This document shows positions 2,571 through 26,764 of a DNA stretch of 64,000 nt, one piece after another (positions within the stretch are counted from its first letter, which is position 1; every line of letters begins with the position of its first letter). Below the pieces are notes generated by a model, which was not told the DNA's origin, searched no databases, and worked only from the letters and a program-made list of their open reading frames with translations. The position numbers and the translations under genes were made by a program. This DNA is from a virus. Its lineage: Duplodnaviria > Caudoviricetes. The stretch lies in the IMG/VR virus record IMGVR_UViG_3300032050_000002, one strand, 5' to 3'.

Positions 2571-2914
2571 AATTTATAATATCCGAACATAGACTAGACA
2601 AATTAATATATTCATTTATTGATGAACATGTTAAAGATATGTTTAATAGAACACTTCCAGATAGTTTTATTGTATATAGTAAAAATACCGAAAATGAGTT
2701 TGATGATGATTTCGTTAAATTGGAATATGATAACTTTGACGGTAGATTATATATTGAAGACGGTTTTATAGGATTAATTTCTGATATGTTTGGTCTTCAT
2801 CCTACTGAAGCAATGGTTAAAATTCACGATTGGTTTGAGGACTATGAAGGAATTAGAGCTAAGTATTTAGAAGGTTGGTATAACGGTAAAAAGCACAAAA
2901 TTGATATGGAATAA
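2567..2914 (+). CDS. Hypothetical protein (MKFIISE motif)
   Basis: 115-aa ORF, ATGA overlap with the previous stop. Confidence 0.7.
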   Translation: MKFIISEHRLDKLIYSFIDEHVKDMFNRTLPDSFIVYSKNTENEFDDDFVKLEYDNFDGRLYIEDGFIGLISDMFGLHPTEAMVKIHDWFEDYEGIRAKYLEGWYNGKKHKIDME

Positions 2915-2960
2915 CTTACCATACTTTACACATTCCTTTTTTTATCCTATAATTCTTCTT

Positions 2961-3317
2961 ATGAAAAAATATCTTACACTTAAAAACTTGGGATGGTTAT
3001 TGACCATACTTGTTTCCGTTATGTTGGGAAGTTCTGCCCTGTCCAAATTACTTGGTACAAAAGAAATGATTGACAATTTTACATTTATGAATCTTCTACC
3101 CTATCTTGATTTATTAGGTATGGTTGAACTTGCTGGTGTAATTATGTTTATCGTTCCAAAAACATCTAAGTACGGTACGGTTCTATTATCTTCTTATTTA
3201 TCAGGAGCGGTTGCAATTCATCTTGCTATGATGGGAGGACAAGGAATTTTTATTCCGTTCTTATTGGGAGTTGTTGTATGGACGGGACATTGTCTTAGAA
3301 CTTATACTAAAGACTAA
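2961..3317 (+). CDS. DoxX-like membrane protein
   Basis: Four hydrophobic segments; S..SKL and LGMVELAG patterns typical of the DoxX-like family; start moved to ATG 2961. Confidence 0.65.
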   Translation: MKKYLTLKNLGWLLTILVSVMLGSSALSKLLGTKEMIDNFTFMNLLPYLDLLGMVELAGVIMFIVPKTSKYGTVLLSSYLSGAVAIHLAMMGGQGIFIPFLLGVVVWTGHCLRTYTKD

Positions 3318-3337
3318 CGATTAAACCAGTTAATTTT

Positions 3338-3367
3338 AAAACCCATATATTTTTTATGGGTTTTTTT
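3338..3367 (+). terminator. Intrinsic terminator
   Basis: AAAACCCATA...TATGGGTTTT stem plus T tract. Confidence 0.65.
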
Positions 3368-3398
3368 ATTTTACAATATATTTATATAAAAAAAAATT

Positions 3399-4106
3399 GT
3401 GAAACACTTATTAAATAATTTATCCGAAGAGGAAAAAAATAGAATTAGAGAACAACACGAAGGTGGAATGAAAGTTAATACCGAAAAGTTTAAATCTTTA
3501 TTAGAGTCAAAACTTGGAAATGCAAAACCATTGTTATCTGAGGCGGCCATCGAGTCTGAAATGGGTTCACTCCTCAATCAAGTAAAATCGATGGAAAAAA
3601 GTACACCTATTGGAGGATTATTATCAGTTCAAGCTTCAGGTGATAAAATTACCGCAAAACCTAAAAACAGTACAAATCCACCTTTAAGTATCGCATTATC
3701 TAGTCCTGAATTACCATCTTTAAGAATGGCGGGAGTTAAACAATATGGTGATACTATTTTCATAAATGCTAAAATTAAATTAAGAGATATTGGAAATATG
3801 GGATTAGTTGCTATTACTAAATTAGGTAGTATTACTATTGATATTTATGACGCAACAGGAAAAGTTAGATATACTGGTGAACAGTCTGAAGACGAAATAG
3901 GGTGGACAGGTTTAAGTGATAGTCAAGCAAAAAAGTTAGGATATAAAGACAGCGATGATATTATTTTAGGATTATATCTTGGTTTAGGCGCTGGAGGGGT
4001 TACTAGAATTTTAGATGCGTTACAAAAAGTACAATACAAACCGGGCGTTGTAAGTTCAATTAAAATACCTGTGGTTGGAAAAACAATTAATATTTCAAGA
4101 GTTTAA
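3399..4106 (+). CDS. Hypothetical protein (LSEEEKNRIREQH motif), GTG start
   Basis: 235-aa ORF after TATTTATA. Confidence 0.75.
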   Translation: MKHLLNNLSEEEKNRIREQHEGGMKVNTEKFKSLLESKLGNAKPLLSEAAIESEMGSLLNQVKSMEKSTPIGGLLSVQASGDKITAKPKNSTNPPLSIALSSPELPSLRMAGVKQYGDTIFINAKIKLRDIGNMGLVAITKLGSITIDIYDATGKVRYTGEQSEDEIGWTGLSDSQAKKLGYKDSDDIILGLYLGLGAGGVTRILDALQKVQYKPGVVSSIKIPVVGKTINISRV

Positions 4107-5294: not shown

Positions 5295-5429
5295 ATGAAA
5301 ATGAATGATATATTTGATGAAGGATTTGATTCCTTCTTTGATGGTGAAAGTGAGAACCCATACTCTATTGGTGATATTAGATATAAGGTTTGGGAATTAG
5401 GATATAATAACGCAAAATCAGGAAACTGA
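5295..5429 (+). CDS. 44-aa ribosome-modulation-factor (RMF)-like micro-ORF, not in the supplied track
   Basis: MKMNDIFDEGFDSFFDGESENPYSIGDIRYKVWELGYNNAKSGN fits the RMF pattern G(Y/F)...G...PY...W..G(W/Y)..A. Confidence 0.55.
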   Translation: MKMNDIFDEGFDSFFDGESENPYSIGDIRYKVWELGYNNAKSGN

Positions 5430-5431
5430 GA

Positions 5432-5534
5432 GAATTAAGTAGTGAATAGTCGGACTTTCTAGAGGTCAAAGCCGAAATGGATATGGTGCCCGAGACGGGT
5501 TCACGTTGTGGGTTCGAATCCCACCTTAATTCCA
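5432..5534 (+). ncRNA. tRNA-like RNA with acceptor stem and T-arm but no D or anticodon arm
   Basis: GAATTAAG/CTTAATTC 8-bp stem; GTGGG-TTCGAAT-CCCAC T-arm; GTGAA/TTCAC arm enclosing two hairpins. Confidence 0.65.
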
Positions 5535-5549
5535 ACAAATTTAAAACAA

Positions 5550-5774
5550 ATGAAAACATACACAGAAACAACATTAAGTGACTTCCAAGCGTGGAGTGGA
5601 GGTAAAGACACACAAGAAATTATTTTAGAACACGGTAAAGAAAAAGATTTTGACTATCTTATGGAAGAACTATATCCTGATGGTCTTAGTGAAACTCAAC
5701 TTAACGATATCCTTTGGTTTGAATCGGATTGGTTATTTGAAAATTTAGGGATTAATTTAGACGAAGAAGAATAA
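5550..5774 (+). CDS. Conserved-looking hypothetical protein (FQAWSGG...ELYPDG...LNDILWF)
   Basis: Start moved to ATG 5550, since the upstream extension lies in the RNA element. Confidence 0.7.
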   Translation: MKTYTETTLSDFQAWSGGKDTQEIILEHGKEKDFDYLMEELYPDGLSETQLNDILWFESDWLFENLGINLDEEE

Positions 5775-5793
5775 TAATTTAAAAACAAAAACT

Positions 5794-6147
5794 ATGACAA
5801 TTGAACAAATTAAAACAGAAATGAACTCATTAATGGAAAAAGTATCACAGTTAGAAAAAAATAATGCAAATGTTGCATTAACGCAAGAACAATTAACTAA
5901 GATAGTTAAAACAGTGGTTGAGGACACGACAAGGGAAATTAGAGATAATATTAGAGGAAACATTGATTTCATTGATGATTACGTTGAGTTAAGTATGGAT
6001 AACAGAGAAGTGTATGTTGATGTTAATCAACGTTCAATTGAAGATGAGATTGTGTCTATGGTTGACGCTAATGGTCTTACTCACGCTATGGATGATGAAC
6101 TATTAGAAGACTATGTTGCCAATTTAATCTTGAGAGTTACTCTATGA
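5794..6147 (+). CDS. Hypothetical protein with N-terminal coiled coil
   Basis: 117-aa ORF. Confidence 0.7.
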   Translation: MTIEQIKTEMNSLMEKVSQLEKNNANVALTQEQLTKIVKTVVEDTTREIRDNIRGNIDFIDDYVELSMDNREVYVDVNQRSIEDEIVSMVDANGLTHAMDDELLEDYVANLILRVTL

Positions 6148-6332
6148 CAAATAAGGAAGTTGAAAAAATAAGATTGGAGGCTTTACTCGGTAGTGTTGAA
6201 AAATACCTCAACTTTATGGTTGAGTTCAGTAAGAAACCTGATTACCGAGGAGATTTAAGTGAAGAGATTAAAAGACTTAAAGATGAATCCGACTCAATTA
6301 AAGATAGGTTAATGGAATTAACCCCACTGTAA
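6144..6332 (+). CDS. Hypothetical protein
   Basis: 62-aa ORF, ATGA overlap. Confidence 0.6.
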   Translation: MTNKEVEKIRLEALLGSVEKYLNFMVEFSKKPDYRGDLSEEIKRLKDESDSIKDRLMELTPL

Positions 6333-6361
6333 AAAAGTGGGGTTTTGATGTATTTATATGT

Positions 6362-6754
6362 ATGAAAAAACTATCAGATAACGAAAAGATAGAGAGAATG
6401 GTTAAAATAATGACCGATTACTTTAATGTTAATAATAAGGTAAAAGGTGATTATGCCGATTGGGATGATAATGGGATAATTTATACATTCAAATTTGTTC
6501 CTGTAGAAATGGTAGTTAATAAAAACTTAGGAGAGTTTTATACAACAGAAAACTGCGAGTTTGAGGGACATATAAAATTAAGAGTTACTGATATACAAGT
6601 TAGTGATTATGATGAATCAGATTGGGAACAAATGAATTATGAGGATGATTTACCTGAATTTGTTTGGGAAGGTGAACTTGAAAACATTGAGGATGAATTG
6701 TATCAATATTTACCTCAAATATGTTTAAGAGCAAAATTTGTCTTTAACGATTAA
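6362..6754 (+). CDS. Hypothetical acidic protein
   Basis: 130-aa ORF after TATTTATA. Confidence 0.7.
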   Translation: MKKLSDNEKIERMVKIMTDYFNVNNKVKGDYADWDDNGIIYTFKFVPVEMVVNKNLGEFYTTENCEFEGHIKLRVTDIQVSDYDESDWEQMNYEDDLPEFVWEGELENIEDELYQYLPQICLRAKFVFND

Positions 6755-12147: not shown

Positions 12148-13347
12148 ATGTTAAACTTAATTAGAAGAATATTACAAGAGGAAGCTGAGATGAAGGAGAT
12201 GGGTATGAGAATTAATAAGCTCAAACAACTCCAACCATCAAACTATCTATTACAATCTTTAAAACAAAAACAATCTAGAAGTGTAATCTCTAAAAGAGAA
12301 AAGGCAAAATCTGATGCAGAACAAATAAACTCATTGATGCCGGAATTAACTCAGAGTCTAAAAAATTTAAGTTGGGATGAAATAAATATGGAATTATATC
12401 CTAATGGTCATTATTATCTTAAATTACCAAAACATATTTTAGATTTATATAAATTAATTACCAAACTTTATAAAAGAATACCATCAGAATACCAAAGATT
12501 AATTGATAATGTTGAAAGAGTAAAAAGAATTTATCTTGATTGGGATTTGACTTTATCAAATGAAGATGTTAATATGTATCTTGAGAAGAATAGAAACAGA
12601 ACACATTTCCCTGAAGGACTACCACAATCTTTATTAGGTTATAACTTAGGTTATAAAATGTATAGAAAATTGATTGATGATTTGTGGTTTATACAATCTC
12701 AAGAAAACGCGTCAAAAGAAGTCCAAGGAATATATAGACAATTATTACAACAAACAGATTTAAATTGTGTTGTAACAAAGAACACTATATTAATAATGAG
12801 AAGAGATTTAACAAAGGAAGATAAAATAAAAATATTATCAGAATACATATTCCAATGTTATGAGTTTAGCGATAGAGACTTCTTAAAAATTCAAAAAGAT
12901 ATTATTCTTGATGGTCCTTTATTAAGAGAACTTGGAGAAAGAAGAGTTCAGGCTTTAAATACGAAAATTGCGGAATACAGTCAAAACTATACTAGAAGAG
13001 CATTTGAGAATTCCCCTTTTGATGTTGACTATACTTATGATGAGAATGAACTTAAACAATATGGTTCTAAGAACCGTAAAGATGATAGTGAAGATGATAG
13101 TGAAGAGGATAATGATGGTGAATGTATACCTTGTAGTCATTGTGAAGGAGAGGGTCAGACTGAATGTGAGTATTGTTTTGGTGAGGGTCAGTTTGAATGT
13201 GAGGATTGCGAAGGTAGTGGTAATGATGATGAAGGTAATCAATGTGGAGGTTGTGACGGTAGTGGGTATGTCGATTGCGAAGATTGTGATGGACGTGGTT
13301 ATGATGATTGTAGATACTGTGATTCTTCGGGATGTGCTAACAACTAA
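12148..13347 (+). CDS. Protein with six C-terminal DnaJ-type CxxCxGxG zinc-finger repeats and no J-domain
   Basis: CSHCEGEG, CEYCFGEG, CEDCEGSG, CGGCDGSG, CEDCDGRG, CRYCDSSG. Confidence 0.75.
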   Translation: MLNLIRRILQEEAEMKEMGMRINKLKQLQPSNYLLQSLKQKQSRSVISKREKAKSDAEQINSLMPELTQSLKNLSWDEINMELYPNGHYYLKLPKHILDLYKLITKLYKRIPSEYQRLIDNVERVKRIYLDWDLTLSNEDVNMYLEKNRNRTHFPEGLPQSLLGYNLGYKMYRKLIDDLWFIQSQENASKEVQGIYRQLLQQTDLNCVVTKNTILIMRRDLTKEDKIKILSEYIFQCYEFSDRDFLKIQKDIILDGPLLRELGERRVQALNTKIAEYSQNYTRRAFENSPFDVDYTYDENELKQYGSKNRKDDSEDDSEEDNDGECIPCSHCEGEGQTECEYCFGEGQFECEDCEGSGNDDEGNQCGGCDGSGYVDCEDCDGRGYDDCRYCDSSGCANN

Positions 13348-14026: not shown

Positions 14027-14488
14027 ATGCCGTCTAGAGATAATAATTTTACAAAAGAACAAATAAAGGGAATATCTTTAACTATTAAAGGTTTATCTAA
14101 AAAATATAAATTTGTTAAGAATTGGGAATTTTCACATGATTTTGAACAATATGCCTCAATACTTTATTTAAACATTTATATCGATGTAGATATTTTAAGC
14201 GAATTTGTTGGAATTGAGGTTGATGATTTTTATAGAGACAGGATTTTAAAACATCCTGACTATGCCGAATACCACAGACTATTCGGTCCTTTAAAATACG
14301 ATTATCAAAATAAAGAAATTGCTGAAAAATCATCTCAGATGAAAGAAGATATGATAACTTATATGAATGATACATATAGTATGTTCCCTGAAAATCTTAG
14401 AATTCAATATAACGTTTTTTCAGATACGATGGTCGATGTTAAGTTAGGTATAGATATATTTAAACCAATAGAACTTTTTAACCGATAG
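14027..14488 (+). CDS. Hypothetical protein
   Basis: 153-aa ORF after TATTTATT. Confidence 0.7.
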   Translation: MPSRDNNFTKEQIKGISLTIKGLSKKYKFVKNWEFSHDFEQYASILYLNIYIDVDILSEFVGIEVDDFYRDRILKHPDYAEYHRLFGPLKYDYQNKEIAEKSSQMKEDMITYMNDTYSMFPENLRIQYNVFSDTMVDVKLGIDIFKPIELFNR

Positions 14489-15257
14489 AACCAATTTCGG
14501 AATCAACAATATTATAATTCTGACCAAAAAATAAACTAGGGTCTTTGCTTAGACTACCAAAAAATACATCTCCCGAGATAATTTTACCAATATCAAAAAC
14601 ACCTCTCACATTGGTAAATTTAACATCAATAATAAATGATTGATTATTTAGTTCTACGTTATCAATTAAAATATCATTTAATTTATCTTCATAGTTTTTT
14701 TCATCCATAACCTCAATAGTTGAGAATAATGATTTATCCCAAGAAATGTAAAATTGTTCTTCCACCTCAACCGTATCATCTTTAATAAAATAACCATTAC
14801 CATCACACTCGGTACATTTATACGCTCCCCTGCCATCACAACTTGAGCATTTTAAATTACCACCACCTTGACACTCATCACAAGTTTCGCCCCAATTATC
14901 GCCATCGCCTCCACATTCATGACAACTTTCTTCTCCGTCACCCATACATTGGGAGCAGTCGGCATAACCTTCCCCAACACAATAATCACAAGTATCCGTT
15001 GGTTCAATATCATGAACATTAATAAGTGAAAAGGTAAATAAATTATAATATATTTTATCGTACAATGAGTTTAAATCTTCATTTAAGTTAGAGTAAGGAG
15101 TTAAAAAACAAAAAATTACAATATCTATTGCACTAAGGGCTTTAAAATACATAGGATAGTCTTTTTTTATTTTACCATAAATTAATTTAGGTGATTCTAA
15201 ATTAGAATGACTCCTATTAAATTTTTTACATATGGTAATTAACTTTGATTTTTCCAT
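14478..15257 (-). CDS. Protein with six internal DnaJ-type CxxCxGxG repeats and no J-domain
   Basis: CDYCVGEG, CSQCMGDG, CHECGGDG, CDECQGGG, CSSCDGRG, CTECDGNG. Confidence 0.75.
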   Translation of the reverse strand: MEKSKLITICKKFNRSHSNLESPKLIYGKIKKDYPMYFKALSAIDIVIFCFLTPYSNLNEDLNSLYDKIYYNLFTFSLINVHDIEPTDTCDYCVGEGYADCSQCMGDGEESCHECGGDGDNWGETCDECQGGGNLKCSSCDGRGAYKCTECDGNGYFIKDDTVEVEEQFYISWDKSLFSTIEVMDEKNYEDKLNDILIDNVELNNQSFIIDVKFTNVRGVFDIGKIISGDVFFGSLSKDPSLFFGQNYNIVDSEIGSIG

Positions 15258-15849: not shown

Positions 15850-16464
15850 ATGAATAAATTAGATAAAGATTATCAAAACCTATTAAGGGATATTTTACAA
15901 AATGGAACCAAAAAGCAAGACAGAACTGGAACAGGAACACTCTCAGTATTTGGAAGACAATTTAGACATGATTTTCGGGACGGATTTCCTCTCCTCACCA
16001 CAAAACGAATGGCTTTTAAACAGATTGTTACAGAACTCATCTGGTTCCTCCGAGGAGACACAAACATCAAATTCTTAGTTAATAATAATTGTCACATTTG
16101 GGATGGTGATGCTTATAAGAATTGGTGTAGACAATTTGAAGTTGACCCAAATAATTTTGATACCGAAGAATTATCTAAAGGTCATAATGACCAATGTTGG
16201 GGTTACTCCATATTAGACCACGTTAAACCTACATCAAAAGAATATAAAAGAGGTCAAATAAATGCTTATTTAGAAGGTAAAGCAGATAAACCTTTCTTTT
16301 ATTTAACACAAGAAGAATTCATCAACAAAATCAAAACCGATAATGAGTTTGCTAATAAGTGGGGTGAATTAGGGCCTGTGTATGGGGCTGGTTGGCGTAA
16401 TTGGGGTGGTAAATCAGATGACAATCTTTACGAAGATTATTTGAAAAAAGTTAAAGAAAAGTAG
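15850..16464 (+). CDS. thyA: Thymidylate synthase, N-terminal fragment
   Basis: [34 protein letters not shown]; stops before the catalytic PPCH. Confidence 0.9.
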
Positions 16465-16503
16465 TATTTTTCCATTTATTACCATATTTATATATAGTAA
16501 ACA

Positions 16504-17205
16504 ATGGTAATTATGGACTACAAAAGAATACACGACAACCTTATTGAAAGAGGAAAAAATAGAAAATTAGATGGATATGTTGAAAGACATCACATTATAC
16601 CAAAATGTATGAACGGGACAAATGAACCAAATAATTTAGTGGAATTAACAGCAAGAGAACATTTTTTAGTACATTGGTTATTACACGAAATGTATCCAGA
16701 AAATAGTGATTTAAGGTATGCCTTTTGGTCAATGTGTCGTAATTCAGATAACCAACAAAGATATAAACCATCTTCAAGGGTATATGAATATGCTAAACAT
16801 AAAATGTTAGAAATATGGCAAAAGTTCAAACCATCAGATAAACAAATAAATTCTATTAAAGAAAGTTTAACTGGAACTAAATGGTATCATAAACCAGATG
16901 GAACTAATTTAAGAGCATTTCCAAATGACCCAAAAATTAGTGATGAAGGATGGTTACCTGGTAGGTTTGGTGGTAAATCAATTTCTGATAAGGCTAACAA
17001 AGTTAAAGAGAAGAAATACGAAGGAAAGAAATTACCTTCAACATCAAACAAAAGATGTTCAATAGATGGTGTTGAATTTGAATCGGCTAAAGCGGCTGCG
17101 GACTTTCTTAATATAAATGAATTTTCTATTAGATGGATATTACAGGGTGGAGGTCGGTCAGAGAAACATAAAGAAAAATACAAAAATTGGTTCTATATAA
17201 AATGA
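16504..17205 (+). mobile_element. HNH homing endonuclease resembling T4 MobE, inserted in thyA
   Basis: ERHHIIPKCMNG...NLVELTAREHFLVHWLL, close to the MobE N-terminus; C-terminal DNA-binding-like region (IDGVEFESAKAAA). Confidence 0.85.
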
Positions 17206-17615
17206 AAATAGAAATACCTTTATATGATATTAAAATTAAATTTTACTTTGACTATGATTTAGGTAAACCCATTAAAAAGATAAAGAAAAAACATAATAAG
17301 AAAAAACTTTATAATGTAAGAAGTAAAATTGATTTTTGTGGAATTGTTATTGGTGAGTTTATACCAAAGGATAAGTTAATTTATGTTTTAATAGAAAAAA
17401 CTAAAAAGGGTATTAATATAGATACATTAACTCACGAAATATATCATTTAACAACCAAAATAATGAAACACAATAACTTCAAGTTTAATAAAACAGATGA
17501 ACCTTTTGCGAGATTAAATGGGAAGTTAAATTCAATTATTATGTGTGAATTAATTAAACATGGTGAGAAGTTATATTACCCAATTGAAACTAAAAAGATA
17601 AAAATAAAATGGTAA
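17202..17615 (+). CDS. Hypothetical protein with HExxH (THEIYH), inside the thyA insertion
   Basis: ATG 17202 overlaps the HNH stop (ATGA). Confidence 0.6.
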   Translation: MKIEIPLYDIKIKFYFDYDLGKPIKKIKKKHNKKKLYNVRSKIDFCGIVIGEFIPKDKLIYVLIEKTKKGINIDTLTHEIYHLTTKIMKHNNFKFNKTDEPFARLNGKLNSIIMCELIKHGEKLYYPIETKKIKIKW

Positions 17616-17881
17616 AAATGATAAAACAAGAATGTTCATTATTACAGTTAGATATGACTGATGAACAAATAAATGAGTTAATAAAAATAAGTAAAGAAGA
17701 TTTAATTGAATCTAAAGGTAGTTTTGATGAAGATACTCTTTATAATTTATCATTATCTAATGTTAAATTACATTGGGTTAGATTTATTAGACAATACTCA
17801 AACAACCCACTTAATGAAATAATTGAGGTTGATAAGATTATCAATGAAGAAACATTAAAAGTTAAAACTTTATTAAAATAA
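17609..17881 (+). CDS. Hypothetical protein inside the thyA insertion
   Basis: 90-aa ORF. Confidence 0.6.
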   Translation: MVKMIKQECSLLQLDMTDEQINELIKISKEDLIESKGSFDEDTLYNLSLSNVKLHWVRFIRQYSNNPLNEIIEVDKIINEETLKVKTLLK

Positions 17882-17882
17882 T

Positions 17883-18032
17883 ATGTGTGATTTAATCTAC
17901 TTATTCAATTGCTGGTGGAAAACAGTAAGGAAAGGAAGACCTAATAAACGGTCATTTTTAATTTTTTCAAAAAGATTACAATTAGAAATAGAATGTTTGT
18001 TATGTACTGGTAGATTTACATCTGAGATTTAG
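17883..18032 (+). CDS. 49-aa micro-ORF inside the thyA insertion, not in the track
   Basis: MCDLIYLFNCWWKTVRKGRPNKRSFLIFSKRLQLEIECLLCTGRFTSEI. Confidence 0.4.
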   Translation: MCDLIYLFNCWWKTVRKGRPNKRSFLIFSKRLQLEIECLLCTGRFTSEI

Positions 18033-18144
18033 TGTGATGGATAAAAAATATTGTGTATAACGTTTCGTGGCTATATTTAGTGCCGAATTAAATAGTATAA
18101 AATTTAAATAATAGATAAAATGAGTAAAGAAAAACAAACCATCA

Positions 18145-19083
18145 ATGAAGAAGTTGAAAGACAAAACGACAAAACGAATAAATAAAGCTATGGAGTATTT
18201 ACACGAAGATGGAACTCCTTTTACAAAAGAAGAGTTTCTACAAAAATTAAAAACAGATAAGGAATTTAATAATGAGTTCGGTAATAAAGGAATAGACCAA
18301 ATCGCAAACCTAATCAACGACCTCAAAACAAATCCAGACTCAAGAAGACTAATGGTTTCAGCTTGGAATGTAGGTGAATTAGACCAAATGGTTCTTCCTC
18401 CCTGTCATTATGGATTTCAAGTTTATACAAGAGAGTTGAGTGAGTTAGAAAGACATGATATTAAAGAACAATATGGGTTTGATTGTAGAAAATTAGCAAA
18501 ACCTTCTATTAAACAATTAGATGATGCGAACATCCCAACCAGAGCAATCTCTTTAATGTGGAATCAACGTTCAGTAGATACATTCTTAGGTTTACCATTT
18601 AATATTGCATCATATGGTTTACTACTTGAAATTATAGCTAAATCAGTTAATATGATACCTGATGAATTGATTGGTAACTTGGGTGATGTGCATTTATATT
18701 CAAACCATATTGAACAAGCTAAAGAACAGATTGGTAGAGAGTTAGATATAATTGAGAGAATAAATTACGGAGTTAATATTTTAGGTTATGAATCATTATT
18801 AGACTATGGCCATTCTCAGAATGAAGATGAATTAATAACAAAGTTATGTAATGAATGGGGTGTACCAAAAAGAACAAGAGAACCATATCCATTACCAACA
18901 TTAAACATCAATACAGAATTTTGGCCTTATGAAGGTGGTGAGTGTGGTGTAGGTCCTTTAGACGCTATTAAAGTGTTTGAAGCGTTTAAAAATGATAACT
19001 TCTGTAGATGTTTATTAGAAGAAGATATACAATTAGGTAACTATCAATCACACCAAACAATTAAAGCTCCCCTATCCAATTAA
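18145..19083 (+). CDS. thyA: Thymidylate synthase, C-terminal (catalytic) fragment
   Basis: IDQI...PDSRR...WNVGELDQMVLPPCH, QRSVDTFLGLPFNIASY, GDVHLYSNH; true start may be ATG 18190. Confidence 0.9.
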   Translation: MKKLKDKTTKRINKAMEYLHEDGTPFTKEEFLQKLKTDKEFNNEFGNKGIDQIANLINDLKTNPDSRRLMVSAWNVGELDQMVLPPCHYGFQVYTRELSELERHDIKEQYGFDCRKLAKPSIKQLDDANIPTRAISLMWNQRSVDTFLGLPFNIASYGLLLEIIAKSVNMIPDELIGNLGDVHLYSNHIEQAKEQIGRELDIIERINYGVNILGYESLLDYGHSQNEDELITKLCNEWGVPKRTREPYPLPTLNINTEFWPYEGGECGVGPLDAIKVFEAFKNDNFCRCLLEEDIQLGNYQSHQTIKAPLSN

Positions 19084-21096: not shown

Positions 21097-21197
21097 CCCT
21101 TTTTAACATGATTCTTGTGCCATAATATAAATGGTAATTGCCAACAAGAGTTGTAATAAGTTATCCACATCAACCAAAGATTTGTATTTTCTTTCAT
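21093..21197 (-). CDS. 34-aa micro-ORF coupled to the adhesin stop, not in the track
   Basis: MKENTNLWLMWITYYNSCWQLPFILWHKNHVKKG; TAATG overlap. Confidence 0.35.
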   Translation of the reverse strand: MKENTNLWLMWITYYNSCWQLPFILWHKNHVKKG

Positions 21198-24100
21198 TAA
21201 TCTATTTTAGAAAAAAGTGTTGTTAAATACTTTTTATTCTCATCATATATTGTTATTTGGTAGAAACCCGTATTCAAAAATCTTAAATCAACTTCATCTT
21301 CAGAATTTATATTTTTAGTTAAATAAACTTTACCTAATATATCTGAAACAACTAAATTAAATTTCTCACTTTCATTATGAAATATTCTTATTTGTAATAA
21401 ACCATTACCCGGATTCGGAAATACTATAAATTCAAAATCTTTATTATCTATTTCACCAAAACCAACTGTTTTTGATGTATTACAAACTTTAGTAACTCCA
21501 AAATAAGCCATTGGACTTGAACCACAAGTATTAACACCCATCACACTAAATGTACCACCCATAAAAGATGAGCTTGTTTTAGCCATAACACTATTTCCTG
21601 TTGTTGAACCAATAAATTGAGTTCCGTTAGAGTTATTCCAAATATAACTTGTAATTCTTGGAGATGTTGATGCAACTAATCTAATTGTATCAGGAAAACA
21701 AACCGATGAAGTTCCTGTAACAGTGGGTCTAACAGTCAATAAACCAACTTTCTTTTTACTTAATACACTACCACAAGCAAATTGTGTCGCTAATCTTATA
21801 CTATCACAAGAATTATTAATACAAGATGTGGATTCAAAATTACTTGGGAAAAATACGTCTATAGAGTTCGTTCCTTGACCTCTCACTATTTGAGCATTTC
21901 CTGGTACAGTCCAATTAAACGATAACGCTCCTGTTGTAGATACACTATACGTGTTAGTAAACCCATTATCAACACAATTAACACCACTTATACTAACACT
22001 TGGTAAACCCAAATCAACGGTTCTAATTCTTGTTATAGGATTTCCACATCCACCCGTAATTACAACTTGAATGTTTCCACCTGTAAAACCATTTTGGAAT
22101 GTTACATTAATTGAATTAGTTCCCTGACCACTAATTATTGTTGAGTTAGCAGGTACAGTCCACAAATAGTTAACTCCACTTATTGGACTAACACTAAACG
22201 TTGCAGGAGTGTTAGTTCCTACTAAACTACAAACACTTCTTACACCTGAAATTGCTGAAGCGGAAATTGTTGATGTTGTTGTTGATAGTGTTCTATTTGA
22301 AGATATACTTCCTCCACAACCATTGTTTAAGTTAACACTAATTGTTCCTGAACTAAATGAGTTAGATACTAATACATTTATTGAATTAGTTCCTTGACCC
22401 GATTGTATTGTCATATTAGTAGGAACAGTCCAAGTAAATGTTCCACTTTGATTTGTAACACTATAAGTAACTGATTGACCTAAGTACGGACACAAATCGC
22501 CAGGGCCTGTTATAGTTCCTATATTAGCGTAAAGATTATTATTAGATACAGTTCCATAAGTCATAGGTGATGAACCACATTTGTTAACTGACATCACACT
22601 AAATTGACCTGAAGTAAAGTTTGTACTAAATTTTACTTTAAGTGTGTCATTACTACTTGAACCTATTATACTAACACCATTAGGTACATTCCAAATATAC
22701 ATAAACGATGTAGGTACAGAATCGACTCTATAAGTGTAAATTGTATTACCATCAGCACAAACTGTTGTAGGTCCTAAGATAGACGTAGGTCTAACAACTA
22801 ATCTATCAATCGTAAATTGAGTTGTACTACTTCCACAAGAATTTGTTGCAGTAACTGAACCACCTGAACCACTTACCAACATTATTGACACTTTAAATTG
22901 TACAGTATCGTTACCTTGTCCACTATATATATTAACTCCATAAGGTACAACCCAATTATAAGTCATATTTGGTTGTGAATTTGTTACAATGTATGATTTA
23001 ATACTACCTGTAGGTTCACCACAGAAACTACCTGATACGATTGGTTTATTAGGTAATTTAGTAACCCAAATACTTCTATGATAAGTAATACCATTAGAAA
23101 CAACATCAACTTCAATACTATCTTGAACGAACCCTGAAGAAAAATTAACATTTATTGTTGGGTTACTTAATCCATTAGTTGATGTTATACCATTAGGTAA
23201 AATCCAAGTAATACTTTCAGGACTTGCGTTAGAATAATCAATGGTATATGAACCAGAACTAAGACCACATATTGAAGTGGGACCTTCTATTTGACCAACA
23301 TTAATAATTGCTGACGTACAACCCAAAGTCATTGGAGAAACTGATTGACAACCTTTAGAATCCGTAACAGTTAATGTGTAATTACCTGACGCGACGCCCG
23401 TTAAATTTTGTGTTGTTTGACCATTTGACCAACTGTATGTAAAAGGAGGAGTTCCACCAATAACACTACTACTTACAACACCATTATTTGAACCACAATT
23501 AGGGTAAGTTGTTATATCTAATGATATACTAATTTCTGATGGTTGAGAAATATTAATATATGTAATTTTTGTACAACCTTTATTATCTGTAACAGTAATT
23601 TGATAATTACCTGATGTTAAATTAGAAATACTACTTTGAGTATTTCCTGTATTCCACATATAAAGATAAGGTAGAGTTCCTCCTGACGCAGTAACCGAAG
23701 CGCTACCATTATTACCACCATAACAATTCACATTTGTCGTTGTTACAATTGTTGTTAGTTGAGTTGGTTGAGTTATTGTAACCGTTCTTGTCGTCTGACA
23801 CCCCTTTGAATCCGTAACTGTTACACTATAAGTGTTTGCCACAAGTGAGAAAATATCTTCTGTTGTTTGACCATTACTCCATAAGTAAGTATAAGGTGAT
23901 GTTCCTCCTGATGGAGTTAAGTTTATACTACCGCCAGGTTGTCCAAAACAACTTGGGTTAAAACTAGTTGATGTTGAGGCAAGTAACGTAGGTTGAGTAA
24001 TTGTGATTGATGTAGTTGATGTACAACCATAAAAATCTGTGACTGTAACTGAATAATCTCCTGATGTTAGGTTTGATATGTCCTCAGTAGTTCCACCATT

Positions 24101-26764
24101 AGACCAATTAAAATTAAAAGGTGAATTACCTAACGGAGTTAAATCTATACTACCATTATTACCACCATTACAACTAACATTAACACTTGTTGTTGATAAT
24201 ATAGAAGGAAATCTAACAGTCCAAGAAGTTAATACATCATAAGCATTGTTAGAACATCCAATACCTGTAGAACAATCACCTCTGCGACCTCTTATTTGAA
24301 CTACACTTCCGGCGGTTAGTGATGTTGTAGATATTAAAGTTCCTGGAGTATAACTTTGCCAAGATGTACCATTAATAGTGTATTGAAATATATCTGAACA
24401 GTTTATACCATTACTACCCGAATTGAATGTCGCTGATACATCACTACCAACACAAACATTGTTTGAGTTGGGTGTTTTAGTATTTAAAGTTGGATTAATT
24501 GGGTCAGGAATTACATTAACGGTATGAACGGGTGAGGTTCCTACACACCCTTTAGAATCTGTAACTACTACTCTATAATCTCTTGTTGATGTAGGTGTTG
24601 CGTTTATTGTTGTGGTTGTAACACTGTTTTGCCAAGTAGAGTTAAAAAATTGCCATTGATAAAAATAAGTTGGAAATCCCGATGTTACAGTTGAAGTTAT
24701 ATTATTAGTTCCCGAACCTCCAGCACATATCTGACTTGTGTAAGTGTTTAAGGTGACAGATGGGTTTGTTGCGGTAGTTAACGACACAGTATTTGAATTA
24801 ACAGATTGATTACAAGTATTTGTAATACTAACATAATAATTTCCTAATGTTGATGTAGAATAAGTCGATGAGTTAGCCCCTGATATTGGATTGTTATTTA
24901 AAAACCATTGATAAGTAAAAGGTTGTCTAACTCCTGATGCGGTAACTGAAAAAGTTACTTGTGATGTACAAGTTGTTTCATTAATAGGTTGTGTAGTTAT
25001 TGTTGGCGGTGAAGAAGTGTAATTAACTGATAATTGAAATGTTCCTCTTGCATTACTATAACCTGTAACCATCACATAATATTCTGTTAAATCTGTTGTT
25101 GCAAATGTAACTTCAGAACGAGTACTACAAAAATCATCACTATAGGTTAAACAAGTAAGTGCTCCACAAGTTCCTGTATATACAAATAATTTAGTATCAA
25201 AAGAAGTTCCTGTACATAAACTTAATGTTACATTTTGTCCGTTACCAATAACCTTATACCAAACCCCTGGTGCAGTCCAAGTCTCAGAGCCACCGTTATA
25301 ACAACTTGGTGAATCACCTGTTTGAGTCGCATTTTGAGTACTACCATTGAAAGTTGTATTACAAGAGGTGATAATCGCTCCTGAACATTCATCATTTGAA
25401 GGTGGTGGAATTGTACACTGAACACTTCTTGTTCTTATTGTTACTGATTCTCCACATGAGTTATTTGTATGAGTATAAAATCTCACAGTTTCGTTTGAAC
25501 TTGGTGTATAAACAACTGGTGTTGTCCCGTAAACTAAAACTGTTGTTCCTCCATTATTACTAATAGTTATAAAATCTGTTAACACCGAACTTCTAAATGT
25601 ATATTGAATTCCTCCTGTTAAACTAACCACTGAGTATTCACCCGCGTAACCACCTGTTGTAATATTTTCTTGAGTTCCTGAACAAGTTGGTGTGTATGTT
25701 GATGTCGGCCATTGACCATTTGAAGCGGTTAGACATCCAGGACCTGAAGTTGTAAATGTCCATACCGAACATCCTATAGCATTACCTGCAGAATTCTTTG
25801 GGATTATTTGCCAATAATATTGTGTGTTATAACTTAATGTTGATGGAGTATATGTTGTTCCAACTTGGTTAACAACAAAAGGTGGAGACGAATTTGACCC
25901 AAAATAAACATCATAACTTGTTGCACCAGATACCGCTCCCCAAGTTAAAGTAGGTCCTATAAATACACCCGTTTGATTATTTGTTGGCGATGTTAAAGTT
26001 GCACAAATAGGAACCGCTTGATAAGTTAATATAACTCTACCCGCAGCACCTCCACCACCAGCTCTACCTGTTGTATTATTTTTATACGCACCGCCACCTC
26101 CACCACCTGGAGATACACCTGACGAACCTGCTCCACCTGAAGAGTGACCACTACCACCATTACCTCCACCAGCAGGTGCGGTAGCTCCCGCAGTTCCCGT
26201 TGCATCAACACCGGCTAAAGTAGTTCCTGCTGATGAGCCCCCTCCTCCCGAAGTTACCCCACCAACTCTACCACTACCACCCCTACTTGATGTTCCTATA
26301 CACCCTGTTGTAGAACCAACTCCAGCAGTAGTTCCAACTGCACTTTGTCCGCCCTTAGCGACAACACCGTTAGTTGATACTGTAGGGGCAATGTTTGACA
26401 ATTTACTAACCCAAGTATCATTACCGTTAGATGCGTTACCTTGAACTCCAGCTCTTGCTGCTCCAACACTATAATAAATTGTTTGACCAGGTGTTACAGA
26501 TATTGTTGTTGTTGAACGAGAACCTCCCGCTCCGCCCGCAAATCCCCCTGTTCCTGATGTTGATTGTCCGGCACCAGCTCCACCACCACCCCAAGCATCA
26601 ATTTTAATTGAGTATACGTTAGCAGGGACAGTCCAAGTTCCTGATGATGTTCCAACATTTGCTCCTGAGGCGGGCATTGTTTGAGAAAAATTTTTAAGAT
26701 TACATAAAATAAAAATAGATAAGAATAGGGTCTTAAAAAATGATGATAAAGTAAGAGGTTTCAT
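21197..26764 (-). CDS. 1855-aa T9SS-secreted adhesin-like protein (signal peptide, Gly-rich domain, FN3/Ig-like, 4 SprB repeats, ~7 PKD-like repeats, T9SS type A C-terminal domain)
   Basis: SCNGGNNGSI...WSNG.TT..ISNLTSG.Y.VTVTD..GC repeats; W.VP....I.SGQGTNSI.V repeats; C-terminal IVFPNPGNG...LNTGFYQI. Confidence 0.9.
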   Translation of the reverse strand: MKPLTLSSFFKTLFLSIFILCNLKNFSQTMPASGANVGTSSGTWTVPANVYSIKIDAWGGGGAGAGQSTSGTGGFAGGAGGSRSTTTISVTPGQTIYYSVGAARAGVQGNASNGNDTWVSKLSNIAPTVSTNGVVAKGGQSAVGTTAGVGSTTGCIGTSSRGGSGRVGGVTSGGGGSSAGTTLAGVDATGTAGATAPAGGGNGGSGHSSGGAGSSGVSPGGGGGGAYKNNTTGRAGGGGAAGRVILTYQAVPICATLTSPTNNQTGVFIGPTLTWGAVSGATSYDVYFGSNSSPPFVVNQVGTTYTPSTLSYNTQYYWQIIPKNSAGNAIGCSVWTFTTSGPGCLTASNGQWPTSTYTPTCSGTQENITTGGYAGEYSVVSLTGGIQYTFRSSVLTDFITISNNGGTTVLVYGTTPVVYTPSSNETVRFYTHTNNSCGESVTIRTRSVQCTIPPPSNDECSGAIITSCNTTFNGSTQNATQTGDSPSCYNGGSETWTAPGVWYKVIGNGQNVTLSLCTGTSFDTKLFVYTGTCGALTCLTYSDDFCSTRSEVTFATTDLTEYYVMVTGYSNARGTFQLSVNYTSSPPTITTQPINETTCTSQVTFSVTASGVRQPFTYQWFLNNNPISGANSSTYSTSTLGNYYVSITNTCNQSVNSNTVSLTTATNPSVTLNTYTSQICAGGSGTNNITSTVTSGFPTYFYQWQFFNSTWQNSVTTTTINATPTSTRDYRVVVTDSKGCVGTSPVHTVNVIPDPINPTLNTKTPNSNNVCVGSDVSATFNSGSNGINCSDIFQYTINGTSWQSYTPGTLISTTSLTAGSVVQIRGRRGDCSTGIGCSNNAYDVLTSWTVRFPSILSTTSVNVSCNGGNNGSIDLTPLGNSPFNFNWSNGGTTEDISNLTSGDYSVTVTDFYGCTSTTSITITQPTLLASTSTSFNPSCFGQPGGSINLTPSGGTSPYTYLWSNGQTTEDIFSLVANTYSVTVTDSKGCQTTRTVTITQPTQLTTIVTTTNVNCYGGNNGSASVTASGGTLPYLYMWNTGNTQSSISNLTSGNYQITVTDNKGCTKITYINISQPSEISISLDITTYPNCGSNNGVVSSSVIGGTPPFTYSWSNGQTTQNLTGVASGNYTLTVTDSKGCQSVSPMTLGCTSAIINVGQIEGPTSICGLSSGSYTIDYSNASPESITWILPNGITSTNGLSNPTINVNFSSGFVQDSIEVDVVSNGITYHRSIWVTKLPNKPIVSGSFCGEPTGSIKSYIVTNSQPNMTYNWVVPYGVNIYSGQGNDTVQFKVSIMLVSGSGGSVTATNSCGSSTTQFTIDRLVVRPTSILGPTTVCADGNTIYTYRVDSVPTSFMYIWNVPNGVSIIGSSSNDTLKVKFSTNFTSGQFSVMSVNKCGSSPMTYGTVSNNNLYANIGTITGPGDLCPYLGQSVTYSVTNQSGTFTWTVPTNMTIQSGQGTNSINVLVSNSFSSGTISVNLNNGCGGSISSNRTLSTTTSTISASAISGVRSVCSLVGTNTPATFSVSPISGVNYLWTVPANSTIISGQGTNSINVTFQNGFTGGNIQVVITGGCGNPITRIRTVDLGLPSVSISGVNCVDNGFTNTYSVSTTGALSFNWTVPGNAQIVRGQGTNSIDVFFPSNFESTSCINNSCDSIRLATQFACGSVLSKKKVGLLTVRPTVTGTSSVCFPDTIRLVASTSPRITSYIWNNSNGTQFIGSTTGNSVMAKTSSSFMGGTFSVMGVNTCGSSPMAYFGVTKVCNTSKTVGFGEIDNKDFEFIVFPNPGNGLLQIRIFHNESEKFNLVVSDILGKVYLTKNINSEDEVDLRFLNTGFYQITIYDENKKYLTTLFSKID

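Follow-up and report, generated by a model that had tools for sequence, protein, structure and literature searches.

A phage thymidylate synthase gene divided around a MobE-like nuclease, with new ends apparently derived from the enzyme's own small domain

Introduction

How can a virus make thymidylate synthase (TS) from a gene that lies in two separate pieces? The question is raised by thyA in a 64,000-nucleotide stretch of DNA from a virus of the Caudoviricetes (IMG/VR record IMGVR_UViG_3300032050_000002), the whole of which we call the window. Its thyA consists of two open reading frames (ORFs), 15850-16464 and 18190-19083, separated by the gene of an HNH nuclease and by small ORFs. We refer to the products as the N-piece and the C-piece, to the new C-terminal end of the former as the tail, and to the new N-terminal end of the latter as the head. 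The mobE-split nrdA of the Aeromonas phage Aeh1 was reportedly described by Friedrich in 2007 as 'genes-in-pieces', and a preliminary description of the window, made from the sequence alone, proposed a natural, intron-less split TS that assembles in trans, with a MobE-like nuclease carrying passenger genes. The first part of that proposal is supported below by identity to T4 MobE, by selection and by recurrence, while the second finds no support in the form given.

It is very probable that the two pieces assemble into a TS without splicing and, given assembly, we think it quite likely that the tail and head act as a clasp. The complete reading, in which separate translation, non-covalent assembly, the tail/head clasp and a history of cassette movement are all taken together, we hold to be fairly probable.

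A thyA gene in two pieces recurs in viral DNA

The N-piece matches positions 1-107 of Pfam PF00303 and then continues for 17 residues past WRNWGG before its stop codon; the C-piece matches positions 104-226 and contains PPCH. The ORFs and this PF00303 coverage bear out the two-ORF arrangement around an HNH nuclease and small ORFs that had been noticed at the outset. The C-piece most likely starts at the ATG at 18190 rather than at 18145, because 93 of 120 C-piece homologues start in the 18190 register and the ATG lies 4 nucleotides (nt) after a stop codon, as it does in relatives that carry no cargo genes (cargo-less alleles).

The split seen in the window was found in about 20 viral contigs. 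The locus is repeated gene for gene in three independent assemblies (L118, L119 and L121), which rules out an assembly artefact, and the C-piece was also recorded on a contig of 307,689 bp. The 80 closest relatives of the C-half are mostly intact, with three split as in the window and three split elsewhere, and in the intact relatives the stretch from WR.W to DQI is a loop of high variability, at the exact position where the window thyA is cut. Querying with the HNH protein alone, which yields a sample not selected on the tail or head, identified 14 loci at which thyA is split; this tail and head recur in almost all of them. The head region matched 466 protein clusters and the tail region 237; 117 of the best 120 head matches are C-only pieces, and all of the best 120 tail matches terminate no more than 12 residues from the LYEDYLKK motif. 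No split thyA allele was found in the cultured phages searched, and a literature search, with subscription journals outside its coverage, found no paper on split thyA.

The new ends resemble a duplicated small domain

The window-type enzymes are long-form TSs with a small domain as in the L. casei and E. faecalis enzymes (alignment of a relative to 3uwl, Foldseek); in E. faecalis TS this domain comprises residues 69-138 (PMC6479881). The native small domain of the N-piece appears to be the source of a duplicated module. The head is a copy of its last two helices, as shown by matches of the head profile to the native segment of 56 out of 62 intact enzymes, with E values as low as 2e-9, and the earlier remark that the start of the C-piece duplicates an N-piece motif was thus confirmed. 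What had been overlooked is that the tail would supply the remaining half of this duplicate: in 21 of 63 proteins the tail profile scores highest at the native first helix, and in 51 of 63 this helix is among the five best of about 400 sequence windows. In an AlphaFold2 model of a natural fused allele the native helices 84-94, 107-116 and 118-124 are mirrored by module helices 143-153, 167-176 and 178-184, and the 55-residue module alone, modelled from three sequences, reached a predicted local distance difference test (pLDDT) value of 76. Because of the two profiles and the repeated three-helix pattern in the model, tail and head together are best read as an additional copy of the small domain, divided at the variable insert. 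The native segment aligns with the small domain of long-form TS, which normally helps to close the cofactor site. The duplicate, which reproduces the first and last helices of that domain, is divided into two parts and lies in other loops, remote from this site.

Prediction of a complex between head (34 residues) and tail (30 residues) gave a score of 0.23 against a mark of 0.32, in a setting in which the controls did not fold. A structure search with the isolated module gave a best Z of 3.9 and nothing meaningful, and the head profile matched PDB sequences at chance level only. When the module was sought outside TS among 1.8 billion representatives, the search returned only TS pieces, TS-derived mini-proteins or chance matches, and the metagenome tail matches were all TS except for one chance match, which does not prove that the module is lacking elsewhere. 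Stand-alone mini-proteins that combine the TS small domain with the second TS insert, and have no catalytic core, lie near thyA (L082:316-666, L042:2312-2656, L131:1032-1386 and L090:5783-6070; proteins P0285, P0292 and P0297).

Four split sites, a three-piece gene and fused forms

The tail/head pair occurs at four positions in TS. At site 1, about 20 contigs are cut inside the native small domain, mostly around GIY-YIG-like genes, and in some of these alleles the stop and start codons overlap with no nuclease present. Site 2 is the loop used in the window, from WR.W to DQI. Site 3 lies between AWN and PPCH, and its module was also found in a short-type TS that is 32% identical to the window's TS. 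Site 4, after the PPCH strand, is represented by a single contig and by one short protein like it, with no nuclease; among the alleles of sites 1 and 4 there are some with overlapping stop and start codons and no spacer. In L108 both site 1 and site 2 are cut, giving three pieces of 109, 65 and 246 residues.

Modules from sites 2 and 3 are about 70% identical, and both are nearer to the site-1 ends than to native domains. HExG before EEF is typical of site-1 and site-2 heads and occurs in 0 of 178 native domains; the motif was first noticed in L001, L040 and L048, and the site-1 set was itself retrieved with it. In-frame single-chain fusions make up 3 of 120, at three different junctions, and one allele among 80 metagenome matches is of the fused form. 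The fused L126 retains the last codons of an HNH gene at its junction, which identifies it as a re-fusion by deletion.

Several further alleles were recorded. A site-3 split allele lies on a Saprospirales contig from a metagenome-assembled genome (L170), probably phage DNA that was binned together with that of a possible host. In L117 an orphan tail remnant with the promoter-like motif (1391-1431) is found 1.3 kilobases 5' of an intact thyA (2693-3929). An A-G motif adjoining the cut was considered as a mark of split alleles and not used, being biased by the query. The intact alleles L031 and L060 have the YGAGWR motif typical of split ones, and the minimal loop of L031 may represent a clean loss of the module.

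Both pieces and both ends are under purifying selection

The hallmarks of dUMP-type ThyA (RR, PxCH, RSxD, the Asn specificity residue and HxY) are all present in the window C-piece, and these catalytic motifs are kept in 116-117 of 117 homologous C-pieces, as are three of the four N-piece motifs in every N-piece (120/120). The ratio of non-synonymous to synonymous substitution (dN/dS) was 0.08 for the tail and 0.035 for the head, with third codon positions varying at 13 of 15 and 28 of 29 codons, respectively. The corresponding polymorphism ratio (pN/pS) of the core blocks was 0.03-0.21 in split alleles compared with 0.05-0.16 in intact ones. Purifying selection at the protein level acts on the two halves as well as on the new ends, in place of the relaxed selection of a pseudogene that the preliminary description had named as its possible refutation. 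Three complete genomes with the split at site 1 or site 3 have no thyX and no thyA other than the split one, and no second thyA was found in the three partial site-2 contigs in which one was looked for. Many large aquatic phages would thus make TS from two genes, and genes annotated as 'partial' thyA in aquatic jumbo phages are often not broken genes.

Introns and inteins at the split

Neither a group I core nor an intein motif had been noticed in the window, and closer analysis agrees. The group I P7 partner TAGTC is absent from the window spacer, while the control intron of L160 shows GACTA with TAGTC by eye. Cargo-less alleles have only 39-56 non-coding nt before the nuclease gene and 4-5 nt after it, and a group I intron was rejected for want of a P7 partner and of room for a core. 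The covariance-model check that had been suggested agrees but weakly, as the Rfam scan found no intron in the window and also overlooked the group I intron of L160. Among 15 of 54 joints listed in RNA contigs of relatives, none connects the end of the N-piece to the C-piece; such contigs show presence only and may be DNA. Pfam gave no intein or Hint match, and the two ends, 17 and 33 residues long and helical in models, lack the N-terminal Cys/Ser and C-terminal His-Asn of a split intein, which was also rejected.

Genuine introns and inteins do occur in related genes. Group I introns with GIY-YIG ORFs lie at the QRS site of thyA in L160 (reverse strand, about 5360-6380), L155 and L173:343-917, and these introns coexist in one thyA gene with a split at the protein level. 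In L036:3363-5681 the insertion point of an intein coincides with the catalytic PPC motif of thyA; the precursor has 772 residues, and the intein looks unlike the window ends.

Nuclease, cargo and mobility

The window nuclease belongs to phrog_655 (E 8e-48) and has a Mob-type N-terminal HNH domain, with 46% identity to T4 MobE over 97 residues (E 2e-29); the pN/pS of its core was 0.10, indicating purifying selection. Since MobE proper targets nrdB, the window protein is MobE-like rather than a MobE orthologue by target.

The content of the gap varies. In distinct metagenome alleles the spacer holds an HNH gene, a GIY-YIG gene or no nuclease, with or without cargo, and site-2 spacers measure between about 360 and 1900 nt, their content being unrelated between alleles. 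L120 has kept the window's cargo and C-piece while its HNH gene is gone, and the split persists without a nuclease in L115, L141 and L155 as well. The HExxH and 90-residue cargo genes also occur together in L176, beside neither thyA nor a nuclease of the window type. The notion of a nuclease carrying passengers finds no support in these observations as it was put, since many alleles are cargo-less and cargo varies by allele. The cargo is no fixed passenger, nucleases and cargo are interchangeable, and the stable unit of the locus is the tail/head pair and not the nuclease.

On trees of either flank, site-2 alleles lie interspersed with intact ones, and their monophyly was rejected (approximately unbiased test, p 3e-5 and 0.003), which shows that the cassette moves sideways between thyA alleles. 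Nuclease homing likely drives this spread, although ordinary recombination could also account for it. Nuclease genes directly 3' of thyA at L081:5477-6157 and L086:5775-6614 carry a second copy of the thyA C-terminus at their own end, which suggests insertion with duplication of the gene end.

Discussion

We propose that both pieces would be made from one operon and translated separately, without RNA or protein splicing, and would then join non-covalently. TS is an obligate dimer, so the complex would contain two N-pieces and two C-pieces. The cut lies in a variable surface loop, and the tail (one helix) and head (two helices) would refold together as a small domain that bridges it, apparently making it possible for selfish nuclease genes to reside within thyA. 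On the order suggested by shared motifs and identities, a nuclease gene would first have split the native small domain at site 1, and the resulting cassette of tail, stop, nuclease, start and head would then have been copied into other thyA loops (sites 2, 3 and 4). The gap behaves like a stretch between genes that has a promoter-like motif of its own, and nucleases and cargo are gained, swapped and lost there; the cassette spreads sideways among thyA alleles, probably by intron-less homing. Whether tail and head amount to a self-assembling, non-splicing clasp that was taken from the enzyme's small domain, travels as one cassette in the company of exchangeable nucleases and renders different loops of the enzyme splittable, is a stronger statement that we judge to be evenly balanced.

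Several points weigh against this proposal. Assembly, activity, tail-head binding, the target of the nuclease and the order of events are all things that we infer. The likeness of the tail to the native helix is modest, at 27% identity over 12 residues with a hidden Markov model score that is not significant, and the alignment behind the fused model partly mis-registered heads onto the native domain, with a module pLDDT of 56-78. The core block from RSxD to HxY has a pN/pS of 0.18-0.21 in split alleles versus 0.11 in intact ones. Retrieval by motif depresses pN, and the pairwise dN/dS values are not independent, although the synonymous diversity and the HNH-fetched sample are unaffected by the motif-retrieval bias. 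A phage can use host TS, so that the sole-thyA status is no proof of need, and recombination among these thyA genes is heavy, so that scatter on the trees is no proof of homing.

The most serious competitor, which we nonetheless consider unlikely, keeps the two-piece assembly and places it in the TS core alone, with tail and head serving stabilisation, the dimer interface or partner binding and forming no mutual clasp. The large core interface that TS halves share in the established structure would allow this, the Aeh1 tails favour a higher-order dimer over the heterodimer (PMC3045599), and the stand-alone mini-proteins of the same domain hint at another role. Against it, tail and head are always paired, in native order and flanking the cut, at four positions distant in the fold, and fused alleles retain the two as a single in-frame unit. 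A reversed history, in which a one-chain enzyme gained a duplicated small domain and nucleases were inserted later at each site, would alter the order of events and leave the mechanism unchanged. Fused alleles exist, and the junction of L127 can be read as the ancestral form with a 6-nt target duplication, but fused forms are rare and differ in their junctions, L126 carries its HNH remnant, and the copies bear the HExG signature of an already split site-1 head; we regard this history as improbable.

Two other explanations seem to us very unlikely. An unrecognised intron or a translational bypass could join the halves into one polypeptide: thyA is a classic host of group I introns, the same phage group contains them (L160 and L173), and the silence of Rfam is weak given the L160 intron that it overlooked. 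Such joining is hard to reconcile with the few nt left in cargo-less alleles, the overlapping stop and start codons at sites 1 and 4, the missing TAGTC partner, the unrelated spacers of site 2, and a tail and head that vary synonymously, as protein does. Alternatively, the pieces could be non-functional or marginal relics kept by nuclease spread while the host enzyme supplies thymidylate (dTMP), as the few degraded or scattered copies (L090 and L117) and the availability of host TS might suggest. The catalytic motifs are intact, however, cores and ends are under purifying selection, and the split outlasts loss of the nuclease in the four alleles named above.

The proposed split TS would work in the manner of Aeh1 NrdA-a/NrdA-b and shares with Aeh1 nrdA a free-standing MobE-type HNH gene within a nucleotide-metabolism gene, active-site residues divided over two ORFs, new tails on both pieces and, to judge from the sequence anatomy, no splicing element. 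The window thyA thus has the Aeh1-type features, namely a split by a free-standing nuclease, selected catalytic residues in both pieces, and new tails. The Aeh1 tails are essential (Crona 2011, PMC3045599); that gene is a single case, and its tails are oppositely charged, have no database match and are thought to derive from foreign DNA. The thyA ends, in contrast, are a recognisable copy of the host enzyme's domain with net charges of 0 and -3, are conserved in hundreds of clusters, and occur at four sites, with exchangeable nucleases and cargo, three-piece forms and re-fusions. The fractured genes of Dassa 2009 (PMC2677866), which combine split inteins with free-standing endonucleases, likewise have a portable module of two protein parts on either side of a nuclease gene, which can thereby interrupt a conserved gene at several positions, whereas the thyA ends are short helices, contain no intein and would not be expected to ligate. 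The td gene of T4 is also a thyA interrupted by a homing endonuclease gene (I-TevI, in a group I intron), but the window thyA has neither a ribozyme core nor room for one, and the insertion positions differ. T4 gene 39/60, split by mobA, and gene 43A/43B of phage 25 (reviewed in PMC2988022) are essential phage enzymes in pieces around a free-standing nuclease, for which no shared transplanted assembly module has been described.

From one phage, Edgell and colleagues suggested that added tails may generally neutralise gene fragmentation by mobile elements, leaving open the origin and working of the tails (PMC3045599, PMC2988022). Split thyA provides hundreds of natural examples, with an apparently traceable tail origin in a duplicated and itself split host domain, four cuts, three-piece forms and revertants; new here are the origin of the ends, the multiple sites, the three-piece forms and the re-fusion. 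If the clasp works alone, it would be a natural split-protein pair of 50 residues: an analogue, at the level of protein, of introns and split inteins that works without splicing and may function when grafted into other proteins.

Organisation of the window locus

Table 1. Features of the split thyA locus, in window coordinates.
Feature	Position	Strand	Remarks
ThyA N-piece, 204 residues	15850..16464	+	DRTG, ELIWF and IWDGD motifs, native small domain, GPVYG..WR
Native small domain of long-form (L. casei / E. faecalis type) TS, with variable insert	16099..16365	+	Relative aligned to 3uwl; Foldseek; head profile
New C-terminal tail of N-piece, K188-K204	16411..16461	+	Copies first helix of small domain
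ATATTTAT promoter-like motif	16484..16491	+	20 nt 5' of HNH start; putative function
MobE-like free-standing HNH endonuclease, 233 residues	16504..17205	+	DNA-binding-type region at C-terminal side
Cargo ORF, 137 residues, HExxH motif	17202..17615	+	phrog_1365, a phage family without known function
Cargo ORF, 90 residues	17609..17881	+	Partners HExxH gene outside thyA too (L176)
Possible cargo ORF, 49 residues	17883..18032	+	Called in some assemblies only
21-codon ORF	18120..18185	+	Stop codon 4 nt 5' of C-piece ATG
New N-terminal head of C-piece, 33 residues	18190..18288	+	HEDG..KEEFL..LKTD.EF...FG; copies small-domain helices 2-3
ThyA C-piece, 297 residues	18190..19083	+	SRR, catalytic Cys (18403-18405), RSVD, N..SY, D.H.Y, C-terminus

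The spacing from the stop codon of the 21-codon ORF to the ATG equals that from the HNH stop codon to the ATG in cargo-less alleles, and translation of the C-piece is probably coupled to the upstream stop. The non-coding segment 18033-18119 contains a GC-richer TAACG..GCTATA element, present as a single copy in the window and elsewhere in same-phage loci only. The window has 32 copies of ATATTTAT on its + strand and 15 on its - strand, and on the + strand the motif lies 12-36 nt 5' of at least 17 start codons (examples at 1823, 2222, 6760, 8962, 9318, 12135, 14014, 16484, 27040, 28499, 41721, 42019 and 43121); it is probably a phage promoter.

Farther from thyA, the window encodes a 1855-residue protein with SprB/PKD repeats and a type IX secretion tail (21197-26764), as well as two ORFs with DnaJ-like CxxCxGxG zinc-finger repeats (12148-13347 on the + strand and 14478-15257 on the - strand). 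The type IX secretion tail protein and the 29% GC content of this neighbourhood would fit a jumbo phage of a Bacteroidota host. In another of the viral loci, L084:2468-2858 is a phage-encoded transfer-messenger RNA (Rfam RF00023, 88.6 bits).

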